Source: Escherichia coli 042 (GTDB lineage Bacteria > Pseudomonadota > Gammaproteobacteria > Enterobacterales > Enterobacteriaceae). From it: a stretch of DNA of 64,000 bases. Below the pieces are notes generated by a model that was given only the letters and a program-made list of their open reading frames with translations, made no database searches and was not told the DNA's origin. Each line of letters begins with the position of its first letter. Within the stretch, counting starts at the first letter, position 1. The stretch lies in assembly GCF_000027125.1 (NCBI RefSeq), contig NC_017626.1; one strand, written 5' to 3'. Below are positions 1-24,488 of this stretch, piece after piece. Made by a program: the position numbers and the translations under genes.

Positions 1-629
1 GTTCCATTGCTGCCGCTGACAACAGCGTCGCGCTGGGTACAGGCTCCGTGGCCAACGAAGAAAATACCATCTCTGTGGGTTCTTCTACCAACCAGCGTCG
101 TATCACCAACGTTGCTGCAGGTGTTAATGCCACCGATGCGGTTAACGTTTCGCAGCTGAAGTCTTCTGAGGCAGGCGGCGTTCGTTACGACACCAAAGCT
201 GATGGCTCTGTAGACTACAGCAACATCACTCTCGGTGGTGGTAATGGCGGTACGACTCGCATCAGCAACGTCTCCGCTGGCGTGAACAACAACGACGCAG
301 TGAACTATGCGCAGCTGAAGCAAAGCGTGCAGGAAACGAAGCAATATACCGATCAGCGGATGGTTGAGATGGATAACAAACTGTCCAAAACCGAAAGCAA
401 GTTGAGCGGTGGTATCGCTTCTGCAATGGCAATGACCGGTCTGCCGCAGGCTTACACTCCAGGTGCCAGCATGGCCTCTATTGGTGGCGGTACTTACAAC
501 GGTGAATCGGCTGTTGCTTTAGGTGTGTCGATGGTGAGCGCCAATGGTCGTTGGGTCTACAAATTACAAGGTAGTACCAATAGCCAGGGTGAATACTCCG
601 CCGCACTCGGTGCCGGTATTCAGTGGTAA
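1..629 (+). CDS. Trimeric autotransporter adhesin, C-terminal part (5' end lies outside the window)
   Basis: Frame is open from base 3; YadA-like repeats ([20 protein letters not shown]), coiled stalk and a C-terminal anchor ending in W. Position upstream of lldP recalls UpaG/EhaG-type adhesins that K-12 lacks. Confidence 0.7.
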
Positions 630-653
630 TGATCCATTAACTTAGTGTGACTA

Positions 654-689
654 AGGGCAATTCTCTGATGAGGATTGCCCTTTTCTTTG
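654..689 (+). terminator. Rho-independent terminator after the adhesin gene
   Basis: Inverted repeat AGGGCAAT...ATTGCCCT followed by a T-run. Confidence 0.6.
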
Positions 690-710
690 CCAGACATCTC
701 CCTCCACCAA

Positions 711-3358: not shown

Positions 3359-4545
3359 TTATTTCCGCAGCCAGCGATTATCGCGCCGCAGCGCAACGCA
3401 TTCTGCCGCCGTTCCTGTTCCACTATATGGATGGGGGGGCATATTCTGAATACACGCTGCGCCGCAACGTGGAAGATTTGTCAGAAGTGGCGCTGCGCCA
3501 GCGTATTCTGAAAAACATGTCTGACTTAAGCCTGGAAACGACGCTGTTTAATGAGAAATTGTCGATGCCGGTGGCGCTGGCTCCGGTGGGTTTGTGTGGC
3601 ATGTATGCGCGTCGTGGCGAAGTTCAGGCTGCCAAAGCGGCGGATGCGCATGGTATTCCGTTTACTCTCTCGACGGTTTCCGTTTGCCCGATTGAAGAAG
3701 TCGCTCCAGCTATCAAACGTCCGATGTGGTTCCAGCTTTATGTGCTGCGCGATCGCGGCTTTATGCGTAACGCGCTGGAGCGAGCAAAAGCGGCAGGCTG
3801 CTCGACGCTGGTTTTCACCGTGGATATGCCGACACCGGGCGCGCGTTACCGTGATGCACACTCGGGTATGAGCGGCCCAAATGCGGCAATGCGCCGTTAC
3901 TTGCAGGCGGTGACGCATCCGCAATGGGCGTGGGATGTGGGCCTGAACGGTCGTCCACATGATTTAGGTAATATCTCGGCTTACCTCGGCAAACCGACCG
4001 GACTGGAAGATTACATCGGCTGGCTGGGGAATAACTTCGATCCGTCCATCTCATGGAAAGACCTTGAGTGGATCCGCGATTTCTGGGATGGCCCGATGGT
4101 GATCAAAGGGATCCTCGATCCGGAAGATGCGCGCGATGCAGTACGTTTTGGTGCTGATGGGATTGTGGTTTCTAACCACGGTGGCCGCCAGCTGGACGGT
4201 GTACTCTCTTCCGCTCGTGCATTGCCCGCTATTGCGGATGCCGTGAAAGGTGATATCGCCATTCTGGCAGATAGCGGGATTCGTAACGGGCTTGATGTCG
4301 TGCGTATGATTGCGCTCGGTGCCGACACCGTACTGCTGGGTCGTGCTTTCCTGTATGCGCTGGCAACAGCGGGCCAGGCGGGTGTAGCTAACCTGCTGAA
4401 TCTGATCGAAAAAGAGATGAAAGTGGCAATGACGCTGACTGGCGCGAAATCGATTAGCGAAATTACGCAAGATTCGCTGGTGCAAGGGCTGGGTAAAGAG
4501 TTGCCTGCGGCACTGGCTCCGATGGCGAAAGGGAATGCAGCTTAA
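3355..4545 (+). CDS. lldD: FMN-dependent L-lactate dehydrogenase
   Basis: 396 aa alpha-hydroxyacid oxidase-type sequence; operon context. Confidence 0.93.
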
Positions 4546-8392: not shown

Positions 8393-8636
8393 GGGGGGTA
8401 ACAACTCCCGACGTAGTGATTAAAAAAACCAGGAAAGGAGTATACCTGCGCGGTGCGGCAAATACAGCCAGCGCGTTAACTGGAATGCAATTTTGCGGGG
8501 CGCGACGAAAAAAAAGCGCAAATCTGGCATCGGCTTGCCGCGAGCGGTCGTATATTTTGATCTTCAGAGGCTATTTTATCGATTCAGCTGTAGTAAAATT
8601 ACGCAAATTTTGACTCTTGAGTATGAGGTTGTCGCA

Positions 8637-10181
8637 ATGTCGGTTTCTAAAAAACCTATGGTACTGGTGATTCTGGATGGCTATGGCTATCGTGAAGAAC
8701 AGCAGGATAACGCCATTTTTAGTGCTAAAACCCCGGTAATGGATGCACTGTGGGCCAATCGTCCGCATACCCTGATCGACGCTTCCGGTCTGGAAGTTGG
8801 TCTGCCTGACCGTCAGATGGGTAACTCCGAAGTAGGTCACGTTAACCTGGGTGCCGGCCGCATCGTGTATCAGGACCTGACTCGTCTGGACGTTGAAATC
8901 AAAGATCGCGCTTTCTTCGCTAACCCGGTACTGACTGGCGCGGTAGATAAAGCGAAAAACGCAGGCAAAGCAGTTCACATTATGGGCCTGCTGTCCGCAG
9001 GCGGCGTACACAGCCACGAAGATCACATCATGGCGATGGTAGAACTGGCCGCTGAACGCGGCGCAGAAAAAATCTACCTGCACGCATTCCTTGACGGTCG
9101 CGACACTCCACCGCGCAGTGCTGAATCCTCGCTGAAAAAATTCGAAGAAAAATTTGCCGCGCTGGGCAAAGGCCGCGTAGCGTCCATCATTGGTCGTTAC
9201 TACGCCATGGACCGCGATAACCGTTGGGATCGCGTTGAAAAAGCTTATGACCTGCTAACTCTGGCGCAGGGTGAGTTCCAGGCCGACACCGCCGTTGCTG
9301 GTTTGCAGGCAGCTTATGCTCGCGACGAAAACGACGAATTCGTGAAAGCGACCGTTATTCGTGCAGAAGGTCAGCCAGACGCGGCAATGGAAGACGGCGA
9401 TGCGCTGATTTTCATGAACTTCCGTGCTGACCGCGCGCGTGAAATCACTCGTGCATTCGTGAACGCAGATTTCGATGGCTTCGCGCGTAAGAAAGTGGTT
9501 AACGTCGATTTCGTGATGCTGACCGAATACGCCGCTGACATCAAAACTGCGGTTGCTTACCCACCAGCGTCCCTGGTTAACACCTTCGGCGAGTGGATGG
9601 CGAAAAACGACAAAACTCAGTTGCGTATTTCCGAAACCGAAAAATATGCCCACGTTACTTTCTTCTTCAACGGTGGCGTAGAAGAGTCGTTCAAAGGCGA
9701 AGATCGCATTCTGATCAACTCACCGAAAGTGGCTACCTACGATCTGCAACCGGAAATGAGCTCCGCAGAGCTGACCGAAAAACTGGTTGCGGCAATCAAG
9801 AGCGGCAAATACGACACCATTATCTGTAACTATCCGAACGGCGACATGGTAGGTCACACCGGGGTGATGGAAGCGGCGGTTAAAGCGGTTGAAGCGCTGG
9901 ATCACTGCGTGGAAGAAGTCGCGAAAGCGGTTGAGTCCGTGGGTGGACAACTGCTGATCACCGCTGACCACGGTAACGCTGAACAGATGCGCGATCCGGC
10001 AACGGGTCAGGCACACACGGCACACACCAACCTGCCAGTTCCGCTGATTTACGTTGGTGATAAGAACGTGAAAGCGGTTGAAGGCGGCAAACTTTCTGAC
10101 ATCGCGCCGACCATGTTGTCGCTGATGGGTATGGAAATCCCGCAAGAGATGACTGGTAAGCCGCTGTTCATCGTGGAATAA
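8637..10181 (+). CDS. gpmM: 2,3-bisphosphoglycerate-independent phosphoglycerate mutase
   Basis: 514 aa from [20 protein letters not shown]; the longer ORF in the track starts upstream in frame. Confidence 0.93.
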
Positions 10182-19356: not shown

Positions 19357-20349
19357 ATGCGGGTTTTGATCGTTAAAACATCGTCGATGGGCGATGTTCT
19401 CCATACGTTGCCCGCACTCACTGATGCCCAGCAGGCAATCCCAGGGATTAAGTTTGACTGGGTGGTGGAAGAAGGGTTCGCACAAATTCCTTCCTGGCAC
19501 GCCGCTGTTGAGCGAGTTATTCCTGTGGCAATACGTCGCTGGCGTAAAGCCTGGTTCTCGGCCCCCATAAAAGCTGAACGGAAAGCGTTTCGTGAAGCGC
19601 TACAAGCAGAGAACTATGACGCAGTTATCGACGCTCAGGGGCTGGTAAAAAGCGCGGCGCTGGTGACGCGTCTGGCACATGGCGTAAAGCATGGAATGGA
19701 CTGGCAAACCGCTCGCGAACCACTGGCAAGCTTGTTTTACAATCGTAAGCATCATATTGCGAAACAGCAGCACGCCGTAGAACGCACCCGCGAACTGTTT
19801 GCCAAAAGTCTGGGCTATAGCAAACCGCAAACCCAGGGCGATTATGCTATTGCACAGCATTTCCTGACGAACCTGCCTACAGATGCTGGCGAATATGCCG
19901 TATTTCTTCATGCGACGACCCGTGATGATAAACACTGGCCGGAAGAACACTGGCGAGATTTGATTGGTTTACTGGCAGATTCAGGAATACGGATTAAACT
20001 TCCGTGGGGCGCGCCGCATGAGGAAGAACGGGCGAAACGACTGGCGGAAGGATTTGCTTATGTTGAAGTATTGCCGAAGATGAGTCTGGAAGGCGTTGCC
20101 CGCGTGCTGGCCGGGGCTAAATTTGTAGTGTCGGTGGATACGGGGTTAAGCCATTTAACGGCGGCACTGGATAGACCCAATATCACGGTTTATGGACCTA
20201 CCGATCCGGGATTAATTGGCGGGTATGGGAAGAATCAAGTAGAGTGTCGTTCTACAAGTATGTCTCTTGCAGATTTGCCAGCTCAAACCGTTTTTCAAAA
20301 TTTAAATCTTGAAATAATAACCAATAAGTTGACATCGGAGATAAGATGA
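19357..20349 (+). CDS. waaC: LPS heptosyltransferase I
   Basis: GT9 family; C-terminal residues differ from K-12 as remembered. Confidence 0.9.
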   Translation: MRVLIVKTSSMGDVLHTLPALTDAQQAIPGIKFDWVVEEGFAQIPSWHAAVERVIPVAIRRWRKAWFSAPIKAERKAFREALQAENYDAVIDAQGLVKSAALVTRLAHGVKHGMDWQTAREPLASLFYNRKHHIAKQQHAVERTRELFAKSLGYSKPQTQGDYAIAQHFLTNLPTDAGEYAVFLHATTRDDKHWPEEHWRDLIGLLADSGIRIKLPWGAPHEEERAKRLAEGFAYVEVLPKMSLEGVARVLAGAKFVVSVDTGLSHLTAALDRPNITVYGPTDPGLIGGYGKNQVECRSTSMSLADLPAQTVFQNLNLEIITNKLTSEIR

Positions 20350-21554
20350 CCTCAACATTATTTTTCTCTCTCGAGAAAAAAAACTGGATAGCGTACTGGA
20401 ACAGAGCTCTCGTATTCTTATTCATTACCACCTATTTTTTGGGTGGGATTACAAGGTATAAACATCTTATTGTTATTCTTATGACAATAACGACAATCGT
20501 CTATCTCTGCAAACGGCCAAAACACTATCTTTCACTATTTAAAACATGTCTTTTTGGTAGTGTTGCCATATTAACTATTGCTGCATTGCTATCACTTCTT
20601 CAATCCCCAGATGCAGGTGCTAGCATGAAGGAAATTTTCAAAGCTATCATTGAAAATACTTTACTATGCACAATAGCAATACCGGTCATATTGAGAGACG
20701 AGAAAAGAGAAGATGTCGAAAAAATCGTTTTCTTCTCATTTATAAGTGCGTTGGGCTTACGTTGTTTTTCTGAATTGATTGCCTATTATAAGGACTATCA
20801 ACAAGGGGTAATGCCATTTGCAGATTATAGACACCGTAGCATTTCTGACTCGATGGTCTTTTTATTTCCTGCATTGTTAAATCTCTGGCTTATCAAATCA
20901 GCAAAATACCGCATTTCTTTTGCGGTTCTAAGCGTTATTTTTATTTTTCTGATATTAGGAACTTTATCCAGAGGAGCCTGGCTTTCCGTGTTAGTCATTG
21001 GATTAATATGGATTCTGATGTTTAAACAATGGAAGTTACTATTAGTAGGAGTAATGGTTTCCATCATTGCATTATCGGTTATTTTCACACATAAGGAGAT
21101 GACCGCAAATCTAACGTATAAACTTCAACAAACTAATAGTTCTTATCGCTATGCAAATGGTACTCAAGGCAGCGCACTCGATCTAATATTAGAAAATCCT
21201 GTTATTGGTTACGGTTACGGTAACGTTGCATATAAAGATGTCTATAATAAACGTGTCGTTGATTATCCAGAATGGACCTTTAGACAATCGATAGGGCCAC
21301 ATAATTTTGCGCTATTCATCTGGTTTGGCACTGGTTTATTAGGGCTGATAAGTCTTATGATGCTATACTGCGCAATATTGAAAGAGTGTATAAAAAATGG
21401 CGTCCAGAATAAAAACCGCTCACCATATAATGCATATTATATAATCTTACTATCTTTTATAGGTTATTTTGTTATCCGTGGAAACGTAGAACAAATTGAA
21501 CCAAATTTATTAGGCGTTTACGCCGGCTTATTATTAGCAATGAAAAACAAGTAA
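20346..21554 (+). CDS. waaL: O-antigen ligase
   Basis: 402 aa AT-rich polytopic membrane protein after waaC. Confidence 0.85.
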   Translation: MTSTLFFSLEKKNWIAYWNRALVFLFITTYFLGGITRYKHLIVILMTITTIVYLCKRPKHYLSLFKTCLFGSVAILTIAALLSLLQSPDAGASMKEIFKAIIENTLLCTIAIPVILRDEKREDVEKIVFFSFISALGLRCFSELIAYYKDYQQGVMPFADYRHRSISDSMVFLFPALLNLWLIKSAKYRISFAVLSVIFIFLILGTLSRGAWLSVLVIGLIWILMFKQWKLLLVGVMVSIIALSVIFTHKEMTANLTYKLQQTNSSYRYANGTQGSALDLILENPVIGYGYGNVAYKDVYNKRVVDYPEWTFRQSIGPHNFALFIWFGTGLLGLISLMMLYCAILKECIKNGVQNKNRSPYNAYYIILLSFIGYFVIRGNVEQIEPNLLGVYAGLLLAMKNK

Positions 21555-21567
21555 AAAAAATAAAAAA

Positions 21568-21590
21568 GGCTGCATAATGCGGCCTTTTTA
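21568..21590. terminator. Bidirectional terminator between waaL and the convergent outer-core operon
   Basis: Hairpin GGCTGCA-TAA-TGCGGCC then TTTTTATTT. Confidence 0.6.
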
Positions 21591-21591
21591 T

Positions 21592-22734
21592 TTATTCAAA
21601 CCAATTATGAATGACCTCTTCGAATCTTTGAGTTACGCCATCCCAACTGTAGTGATCAAACACAAAATCCTGACCTTGCTTTGCAACTGCTGTTAATTCA
21701 GGATTCGCTAACGTTTTTAAAATATCGCTGCTTATGGAGTCTGCAGTCATAGGTTCTTTTAAATGGAATCCCGTAGTATTTTCTTTGACAAATTCCGTCA
21801 TCCCCCCACGCGTACTCACTAAAACAGGCTTACCAGCCCCCATAGCTTCAATTGCCACCATGCAAAATGGTTCCTGGAACTGGGAAGGAATGACAACTAA
21901 ATCTGCCAGTGGGTAATAACAATGCATCTTTTCAGGCGGTATGCTTCCTAACATAATGCAACGATCCTTCAAACGTTTTGCAATTTCCCTGACATTGTGT
22001 TGATATGCACCTTTGTCACTTTTACTCATTTCTGTATAATCACCAATCACAACTAATTTTAAATTTTTGTGAGCAACGGCCAATTTTTCGAATGATTGCA
22101 TCAACAGTAATATGCCTTTGTCAGGGACGATACGCCCAGCATAAAAAATAATTTTCTCTTCAGGGGAGATATTAAGTTCGCTTCTAGTGATCGGCTGAAA
22201 AGTAGATTGATAGGTTTCTAAATCAATTCCATTTGGTACAATCTCAATATCTGCATTTGCTAAATAAGATTGGTAATACTTTTTCAAGTATAAACTAGGC
22301 ACTATCATTTTAACATTTTGCTCAAGCAATTTTGGTTCAAATGCATTATGCATATGAATAACCACTCTTGCCTGAGGAGCTCGCTTACGAATTTGAGTGT
22401 ATAGCTTCATGCTATTATGAACTACAATAACACTTTCTTTCGTTATAGGAAAATCATGGGCAATATTCAATATTCTCTGTGAATATGGTAGAGGATCAAG
22501 TCTTGTCCATTTTTGAAATAACCGCTTATATATGCGACTGAATCCAACCCTATGAATACTACAATTATCATTAACAAAGGTGTAATTTGAGTATCCTGGA
22601 TTCTTGATACAAACAATGCGATTTGGGAAATTGGTACGCTGAGCAACCTGATACATCCACGTTTCAACAGCGGCCGCTCCGCGGGGAGGAATTGAAAAAA
22701 TAGGAGTAACTGTAAATATTATTTTATCAACCAT
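21592..22734 (-). CDS. Outer-core glycosyltransferase, GT4 family (WaaD-like of R3-type cores)
   Basis: 380 aa GT4-like sequence; last gene of the waaQ operon, convergent with waaL. Confidence 0.65.
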   Translation of the reverse strand: MVDKIIFTVTPIFSIPPRGAAAVETWMYQVAQRTNFPNRIVCIKNPGYSNYTFVNDNCSIHRVGFSRIYKRLFQKWTRLDPLPYSQRILNIAHDFPITKESVIVVHNSMKLYTQIRKRAPQARVVIHMHNAFEPKLLEQNVKMIVPSLYLKKYYQSYLANADIEIVPNGIDLETYQSTFQPITRSELNISPEEKIIFYAGRIVPDKGILLLMQSFEKLAVAHKNLKLVVIGDYTEMSKSDKGAYQHNVREIAKRLKDRCIMLGSIPPEKMHCYYPLADLVVIPSQFQEPFCMVAIEAMGAGKPVLVSTRGGMTEFVKENTTGFHLKEPMTADSISSDILKTLANPELTAVAKQGQDFVFDHYSWDGVTQRFEEVIHNWFE

Positions 22735-22742
22735 CTCGAATA

Positions 22743-23756
22743 TTAACCTTTCATAACATTATATTTAATTGCTGTAAAAACACCATTGAGAAATTTTTTC
22801 TGGTAAAGCAAGTGTTTATATTTTTCTTTGTACTCATGTTTTTTAACAGCTTTTTTATAAGGTATATTTCTCCATGGAGATATATTATAAATATTACGAA
22901 AATAATCTGCAGATGCGTAGTCCGCCCAATCATGCCATGGCTTAGTTACACCAGTATAATGTATGAAGACAGTTTCATCATTAATAAACTGGGTGTAATA
23001 TTCACTATTTTTTTCTTCAAATTCTGACTTTATAGTATAAATACAATTATATTTTCTCGGTAATATTTTAGCATGATGTAAAAACATTAAGTTTAAAATA
23101 TCTTGATCCGGATACTTTAATTTTTTGATAATTGACTCATCTGATAATAGATCAAAAAATTTCTCCGTTAGTCTTTGTTGTAACCATTCCCGTAAATTAA
23201 TATACATTACACCAGAGTTAAAATAGCTACCGTTAAAATCCTCATTACATAAACGCTCAGCGCTTTTACTTTGCATAGCATCTACATCAATTACCACAGC
23301 CCCATATTCATCTTTAAACTCTAATGCTATTAACTCGTTCAATGAACCCTTACAGACGATATCAGCATCAAGATATAATAATGAATCCAATCGCGCAGAA
23401 AAATAATCAAATGAAAGCAAACGATAATAAATAGATACTGGCCAGATATTTGATTGAGGTAGCGCCTTCAATGGCTCAGAATCAATATGATATAATTTAA
23501 TTACTGTTTGATACTTCGTTGCTAATTGTGATAATAATTCAATATACTCTTTGTCTAAGTAATCAGCGATTATGTGAAAGGTAAATTTGTTTTGTTTATT
23601 ATTTTCAAGAATTGAAGCAATTGAAATCGCAGCCCCAACCTGGTAGTTCTCATCAATACCCCATGAGACATTAAACGTTTCCCGTTCATCAAGTTTAACG
23701 GGGCGCTTGTCCAGTTCAATTATATCTTTAAATTGAGTAAGATGTTTAAAATCCAA
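22743..23756 (-). CDS. waaJ: Outer-core GT8-family glycosyltransferase (WaaJ-type)
   Basis: 337 aa GT8 (LgtC/RfaJ-like) fold; AT-rich. Confidence 0.7.
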   Translation of the reverse strand: MDFKHLTQFKDIIELDKRPVKLDERETFNVSWGIDENYQVGAAISIASILENNKQNKFTFHIIADYLDKEYIELLSQLATKYQTVIKLYHIDSEPLKALPQSNIWPVSIYYRLLSFDYFSARLDSLLYLDADIVCKGSLNELIALEFKDEYGAVVIDVDAMQSKSAERLCNEDFNGSYFNSGVMYINLREWLQQRLTEKFFDLLSDESIIKKLKYPDQDILNLMFLHHAKILPRKYNCIYTIKSEFEEKNSEYYTQFINDETVFIHYTGVTKPWHDWADYASADYFRNIYNISPWRNIPYKKAVKKHEYKEKYKHLLYQKKFLNGVFTAIKYNVMKG

Positions 23757-23780
23757 TTTAATTACCCTTCATCATAATCA

Positions 23781-24488
23781 TTATTTGCTCTTCAATCCTA
23801 GTTTTACTTTTACATCCCTGATTGCTTTTTTAATTTTCTTTTTGAATATGAGATATGTATAGCCAAAGTCTTTCAATTCATTTTTTATATTATAGTGCCG
23901 TTCAAGATCAATGCGATCTTTTGCTTTTAAAACTGCGGTTGTTTTTTTACCTGAAAGGTCAATTAGTCTTAAACCTTTTTCGGATACTATAAAATTTCCT
24001 TTATGAGGATCGCCAGACACCATTCCATGCTGATGCAACTCTTTTATCGATTCTGATAATTGTTCCTTCAGATCTTCAGAAATTTCCAAATACTCATTTA
24101 ACCCGACACCTTCAATATACTCAATGAGCATAATATAATAATGCGCGAAATTTAATGTTTTACGTTCAGCAAGCAAAAAATAGTCATTAATTGATTGAAT
24201 GCCTTCACCACGTACCCGATCGGTTTGATAAATTAAATTTTCATAATAATCTTTTTTTACGCAAGATTTTAAGAAACGTTCGATCATTTTATGCTTTGGC
24301 GCATAAACTTTAAGTACAAGAGGTCCACGAGCAGTGTCAATAAGAATGACTTTAGTATCATCAATAGAACGAAAAACTTTTAATGTTTTAACCCTGCAAG
24401 TTAAAAAGTCATTCAGCACTTGCTCATAAAAGGGATCATTATCTTTTATGAAAACTTTCAACCCATTTATCGTTTTATTATATATCAT
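23781..24488 (-). CDS. waaY: LPS core heptose II kinase
   Basis: 235 aa small kinase-like protein between two GT8 genes, as waaY is in waa clusters. Confidence 0.75.
   Translation of the reverse strand: MIYNKTINGLKVFIKDNDPFYEQVLNDFLTCRVKTLKVFRSIDDTKVILIDTARGPLVLKVYAPKHKMIERFLKSCVKKDYYENLIYQTDRVRGEGIQSINDYFLLAERKTLNFAHYYIMLIEYIEGVGLNEYLEISEDLKEQLSESIKELHQHGMVSGDPHKGNFIVSEKGLRLIDLSGKKTTAVLKAKDRIDLERHYNIKNELKDFGYTYLIFKKKIKKAIRDVKVKLGLKSK

Follow-up and report, generated by a model that had tools for sequence, protein, structure and literature searches.

A gene fragment upstream of lldP in a non-K-12 Escherichia coli, very probably the 3′ end of the chromosomal upaG/ehaG/sadA adhesin gene

Three trimeric autotransporter adhesins (TAAs), EhaG, UpaG, and SadA, have been described as positional orthologues (PMC7247748). 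The locus is named upaG in UPEC, ehaG in EHEC, and sadA in Salmonella, and sadA keeps its place between the mtl and lld operons across Escherichia, Salmonella, and Shigella (Grin et al. 2014, PMC3953254). In E. coli K-12, a '5-kb' deletion takes out the adhesin gene together with that of the lipoprotein (the sadBA operon; PMC3953254). A trimeric state has been reported for UpaG (PMC5670179) and for SadA (PMC3953254), and epithelial adherence has been described for two of these proteins, UpaG adhering to bladder cells and EhaG to intestinal cells (reviewed in PMC7247748). SadA, in contrast to UpaG and EhaG, was reported not to bind extracellular matrix proteins (PMC7247748). The trimeric inner-membrane lipoprotein SadB boosts the surface display and integrity of SadA (Grin et al., PMC3953254). 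For UpaG, the β-barrel segments trimerise in the periplasm ahead of BAM-dependent insertion, passenger translocation comes after trimer formation, and mutation of the C-terminal Trp hampers assembly (PMC5670179). A tagged UpaG derivative of 170 residues, made up of about 80 native passenger residues, the linker, and the barrel, assembles on its own (Sikdar et al. 2017, PMC5670179). The same study described the roles of residues Y1735 and W1778 and called residues 1655-1675 the Him motif (PMC5670179). The prototype TAAs, YadA of Yersinia and Hia of Haemophilus, have an anchor of the same fold family, a neck motif, and a coiled-coil linker, but they are distant in sequence from the gene described here, their passengers are much shorter or otherwise built, and their genomic context is different.

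The sequence analyzed here, referred to as the window, is the whole stretch of 64,000 nucleotides of E. coli DNA, and it opens in the middle of a gene. Translation of the + strand showed an open frame from base 3 to 629, consisting of 208 codons and a TAA stop codon (627-629) with no internal stop. The 5′ part of the gene lies outside the window, which contains only its last 208 codons. A first-pass annotation had placed a YadA-family adhesin gene at positions 1-629; these coordinates were right, with the reading frame opening at base 3, and the family assignment was supported by Pfam matches to the stalk and anchor and by matches to the structures of SadA, Hia, and YadA, at a level that chance does not explain. 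We are nearly certain that positions 3-629 are the 3′ end of the chromosomal TAA gene that most E. coli carry between the operons for mannitol (mtl-yibL) and L-lactate (lldPRD). The following features were recognized in and just behind it:

3..629, + strand: 3′ end of a TAA gene, almost certainly the positional orthologue of upaG/ehaG/sadA (open frame, Pfam, identity to relatives)
9..86, + strand: last YadA-like head (Ylhead) repeat of the passenger, residues 3-28 (sub-cutoff Pfam match; aligns to SadA 2YO3/2YO0)
99..173, + strand: neck motif 1, residues 33-57 (best YadA_stalk stretch; aligned to SadA 2YO3)
255..317, + strand: neck motif 2, the 'Him' motif, residues 85-105 (identical to UpaG 1655-1675)
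About 303..443, + strand: coiled-coil stalk and α-helical linker, residues ~101-147, boundaries approximate (YadA 3H7X/3LT6, query 101-146; Hia 3EMO, query 84-208)
444..626, + strand: YadA-like membrane anchor, four β-strands per subunit, residues 148-208 (Pfam YadA_anchor)
495-497, + strand: Tyr in the anchor corresponding to UpaG Y1735 (residue mapping by alignment)
653..690, + strand: strong intrinsic terminator behind the adhesin gene, with a 13-bp stem at 653-682 and TTTTCTTT after it (terminator scan)

Pfam identified two stretches of YadA_stalk (PF05662) in the fragment (E 8e-21, 74.6 bits against a cutoff of 28.4) and a full-length YadA_anchor (PF03895) at residues 148-208 (profile positions 1-60 of 60, E 2.8e-20, 72.6 bits against a cutoff of 22.7). 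The best YadA_stalk stretch, for which Pfam gave coordinates, is neck motif 1; the second is probably neck motif 2 (the Him motif). A single stretch of YadA_head (PF05658) at residues 3-28 scored 19.7 bits, under the 25-bit cutoff. Among PDB sequences, a fibre fragment of Salmonella SadA (2YO3, 7.2e-52) aligned without gaps to residues 1-134, with 97 of the 134 residues identical when counted by hand, or about 72% over the aligned stalk. The anchor structures of Hia (3EMO, 2.3e-19; 2GR7, 1.6e-17) matched the C-terminal 90-125 residues, and the YadA structures 2LME and 3H7X were also among the matches. The anchor was located at the very C-terminus, with neck and stalk motifs and a coiled coil before it, and the fragment ended in a Trp (624-626) at the position of UpaG W1778, an aromatic residue that is part of the β-signal. 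The fragment departs nowhere from the family, and each defining feature that falls within the window was found. Every NCBIfam match returned was to an 'exception' model for another TAA (EmaA, BimA, YadA, or Ata) and fell far under its cutoff, and because no UpaG or EhaG model was among them, the naming of the allele rests on the RefSeq annotation of its relatives. Rfam gave no match within 1-629. A 56-aa ORF on the - strand (262-432) runs opposite to the conserved TAA frame and was taken as spurious.

The surroundings of the gene were the same as those of the described systems. Seven loci were fetched for comparison, and in each of them the gene order was mtlADR-yibT-yibL-sadB-like gene-TAA-lldP-lldR-lldD. 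UpaG (c4424 in CFT073, also present in ABU 83972) has the same chromosomal position, with a sadB-like gene, the TAA gene, and lldP in succession; EhaG of O157:H7 has the same position as well, and SadA of Salmonella enterica (STM3691), with its lipoprotein SadB, is the positional orthologue at the mtl-lld position of a different genus (PMC3953254). At precisely this place, RefSeq has 'upaG' in ABU 83972 and 'ehaG' in O157:H7, in agreement with the earlier suggestion that UPEC and EHEC carry UpaG/EhaG-type adhesins here. In the window, the lldP ATG was found at 927 on the same strand, 297 nt past the adhesin stop codon, and the layout was the same in ABU 83972 and O157:H7. The sadB-like gene of the fetched relatives encodes a 227-aa DUF3251 protein ('SadB/YajI family lipoprotein'), and this upstream lipoprotein matched the SadB structure 4C47 at 3.3e-69. 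In 2012C-4221, whose TAA C-terminus is identical to that of the window, the sadB-like gene carries a frameshift according to its annotation (3727-4411 of fetched locus L001), and strain MEW has an IS1 between yibL and the sadB-like gene (499-1196 of L007). These two cases indicate that the sadB-TAA operon is evidently prone to occasional decay.

When the fragment was aligned to UpaG and EhaG, as the first-pass annotation had proposed for the upstream sequence, 205 of the 208 residues were identical to UpaG and 203 to EhaG; 207 were identical in 2021CK-01784 and all 208 in 2012C-4221. At the DNA level, the 629 bp were 99.8% identical to 2012C-4221, 95.5% to upaG of ABU 83972, and 92.5% to ehaG of O157:H7; by megablast, O157:H7 and many other genomes with a gene annotated 'ehaG' fell at about 91-93%. 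The Him motif, Y1735, and W1778 of UpaG are all shared by the fragment. Codon differences were overwhelmingly synonymous (24 synonymous and 3 non-synonymous against UpaG, 37 and 5 against EhaG), which indicates purifying selection on the translocation unit.

The full-length TAAs were all encoded by intact single ORFs, but their lengths varied:

O157:H7 (EhaG, WP_001033191.1): 1588 aa
2012C-4221: 1724 aa
MEW: 1742 aa
HCP5S3_I2: 1745 aa
2021CK-01784: 1750 aa
ABU 83972 (UpaG, WP_001033292.1): 1778 aa
VCSW7: 1896 aa

The closest full-length relatives contained an ESPR (PF13018), 8 head stretches (170-197 bits), 14 stalk or neck stretches, and the anchor according to Pfam. In an alignment of the seven proteins, the last ~330 columns were 92-98% invariant and the preceding ~200 columns 82-83%; the last ~530 columns were free of gaps, whereas the N-terminal two thirds included blocks that were ~80% gapped. 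The fragment therefore identifies the locus and not the passenger allele. Over aligned positions, the closest relatives were 81-84% identical to full-length UpaG and 77-80% identical to full-length EhaG. They differed from UpaG by 100-180 gapped positions, and EhaG was 136-308 aa shorter than they were. Their RefSeq label is 'YadA-like family protein', neither UpaG nor EhaG, and by sequence comparison they form a group of alleles alongside UpaG and EhaG that is slightly nearer to UpaG.

The YadA anchor and the neck motifs are common to all TAAs, so Pfam alone is unable to separate one from another, and a fragment of some other E. coli TAA (Saa, Eib, or a YadA-like gene of a mobile element) that happened to adjoin lldP would have given similar domain matches. 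Such an origin is exceedingly improbable given the identity and distribution of the sequence. The fragment was 97.6-100% identical to TAAs annotated at the mtl-lld locus itself, and the sequence behind it, with the terminator and the lldP promoter region, was collinear with that of the upaG and ehaG loci. In addition, megablast found the 629 bp in 4,154 of 5,426 complete E. coli genomes, about three quarters, and the matches were all single-copy and chromosomal; none of the 4,154 matching genomes had a plasmid copy. All of these observations point to the chromosomal gene between the mannitol and L-lactate operons.

Within that assignment, it is distinctly unlikely that the gene is a pseudogene with an intact-looking 3′ end, disrupted upstream of the window by a frameshift, stop codon, IS element, or internal deletion. 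The window does open inside the gene, the passenger is rich in repeats and indels (lengths of 1588-1896 aa, with many 100-column blocks ~80% gapped), and of the close relatives one has the frameshift in the neighbouring sadB-like gene and another has the IS1 next to the operon. Against this, the TAA genes of the five closest relatives, which range from 1724 to 1896 aa, are intact single ORFs, as are those of UpaG and EhaG, and the fragment contained no stop codon and differed from UpaG and EhaG mainly at synonymous sites. The intactness of the gene in this strain is judged solely from that of the five closest relatives. A different question is whether the passenger domain of this strain is a variant of the UpaG/EhaG adhesin unlike all characterised alleles. 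The close-relative alleles are 1724-1896 aa long and about 77-84% identical to UpaG and EhaG, but nothing in the window itself speaks for such a variant, and we think it improbable. If it were the case, the passenger might bind with a distinct specificity, while the adhesin would remain a known one and the variant a new allele of it.

For an intact gene at this locus, an assembly pathway can be proposed by reference to UpaG, SadA, Hia, and YadA. The full protein would be about 1600-1900 aa long and would be exported by Sec via an extended signal peptide; the opening of the full-length adhesin ORF (the ESPR) would read MNKIFKVIWNPATG. Three subunits would start to trimerise in the periplasm, aided by the inner-membrane lipoprotein SadB that would be encoded just upstream. 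BAM would insert a 12-stranded barrel, to which each subunit would supply four β-strands, with the C-terminal Trp acting as part of the β-signal. Three linker helices would then cross the pore, and the passenger would be exported to form a surface fibre. By analogy with the described adhesins, this fibre may bind extracellular matrix proteins and epithelial cells and may promote autoaggregation and biofilm formation. Judged from its sequence, the window encodes the complete translocation unit, and the C-terminal portion of UpaG that was used in the 170-residue derivative corresponds to residues wholly within the part encoded in the window. Earlier publications cover the locus and its deletion from K-12, the role of SadB as a helper, and the way in which the C-terminal unit assembles. 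The gene is that of a textbook type Vc autotransporter at a known locus, which makes this an ordinary finding, and its relevance outside annotation is small.

The statement in the first-pass annotation that K-12 lacks an adhesin gene here was correct: in MG1655, yibL (b3602) is followed by 371 nt and then by lldP (b3603), with nothing between, in line with the deletion described by Grin et al. (PMC3953254). K-12 parts from the TAA-carrying strains right behind the yibL stop codon, and its homology to the window starts at 651, the foot of the terminator hairpin. Position 651 was considered as the right end of the K-12 deletion and rejected; the preceding ~100 nt of K-12 are homologues of REP units, which are absent from the window. 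This stretch of K-12, between yibL and the terminator, matched the REP units 3′ of upaG in ABU 83972, which places the right end of the deletion inside the REP cluster. REP units in the spacer that separates the adhesin stop codon from its terminator varied in number: ABU 83972 had two of them and O157:H7 a single one, and the window had none (the spacer at 630-652 was compared with 8630-8740 of fetched locus L003 and 8628-8700 of L004). Estimated from coordinates, K-12 is shorter than ABU 83972 by about 6.7 kb at this locus.

The adhesin terminator was conserved in K-12, ABU 83972, and O157, and the RNA from 625 to 700 had a predicted folding energy of -27.1 kcal/mol (z -3.9). Two palindromes of the AATTGG...CCAATT type were observed upstream of lldP, at 711-729 (GAATTGGCCCTACCAATTC) and 836-854 (CAATTGGCAGTGCCACTTT), about 125 bp apart. 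Both were invariant in K-12, ABU 83972, O157, and the window, and they are probably the O1 and O2 operators for LldR in the lldPRD promoter. The - strand at 646-753 gave a sub-threshold match to the full model (1-108) of Rfam STnc380, an enterobacterial sRNA candidate (26.6 bits against a gathering score of 60, E about 0.003-0.008). The alignment depended on the reverse complement of the adhesin terminator hairpin and on the palindrome AATTGGCCCTACCAATT. This match may reflect mere conservation of the sadA/upaG-lldP intergenic region and not an sRNA in this strain.

The first-pass annotation had noted an R3-type lipopolysaccharide core as a sign of a non-K-12 background, and this inference is sound. 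Positions 20300-24000, which contain waaL and two glycosyltransferase genes (waaL-waaD-waaJ), were 98.2% identical to O157:H7 and had no counterpart in K-12, and O157 strains are R3 by waaL allele (PMC8715443). This segment was present in 1,363 of the 5,426 complete E. coli genomes. Identity to K-12 was 97.8% as far as waaC (window 20237); K-12 had no detectable similarity to window 20238-24002, and two outer-core genes were only 64-69% identical. In the closest relative, the core genes were in the order rfaQ-waaG-rfaP-waaO-rfaY, two transferase genes, and rfaL; the two genes between rfaY and rfaL were annotated as a UDP-glucose:(galactosyl)LPS α1,2-glucosyltransferase and then an LPS N-acetylglucosaminyltransferase. 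The window therefore represents a non-K-12 E. coli background that has retained the region of the sadB-upaG/ehaG-type adhesin gene and has an R3 LPS core.

Among complete RefSeq E. coli genomes there was no exact match to the window, and the best identity was 99.0% over 1-930 and 99.5% over 1-25000, while the waaL segment (20300-24000) was 100% identical to several strains. A stretch of 140 nt with strain-specific SNPs (681-820) had no exact match among 100,044 species-representative genomes or in the JGI metagenome collection. The closest relative differed from segment to segment, which suggests that the background is a recombinant mosaic. Coverage of the later parts of the window was less frequent: at least 80% of positions 25001-50000 was covered by 140 of the 5,426 genomes, and at least 80% of positions 50001-64000 by 25. 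A prophage-like island was observed between yicC and dinD/ligB, from ~38100 to beyond 50000, with coordinates estimated from the annotation of a relative. It encoded a tyrosine integrase, an HTH regulator, an AntA/AntB antirepressor, an ash-family protein, a TOPRIM/DUF927 primase-like protein, and P22-type DNA ejection/injection proteins.
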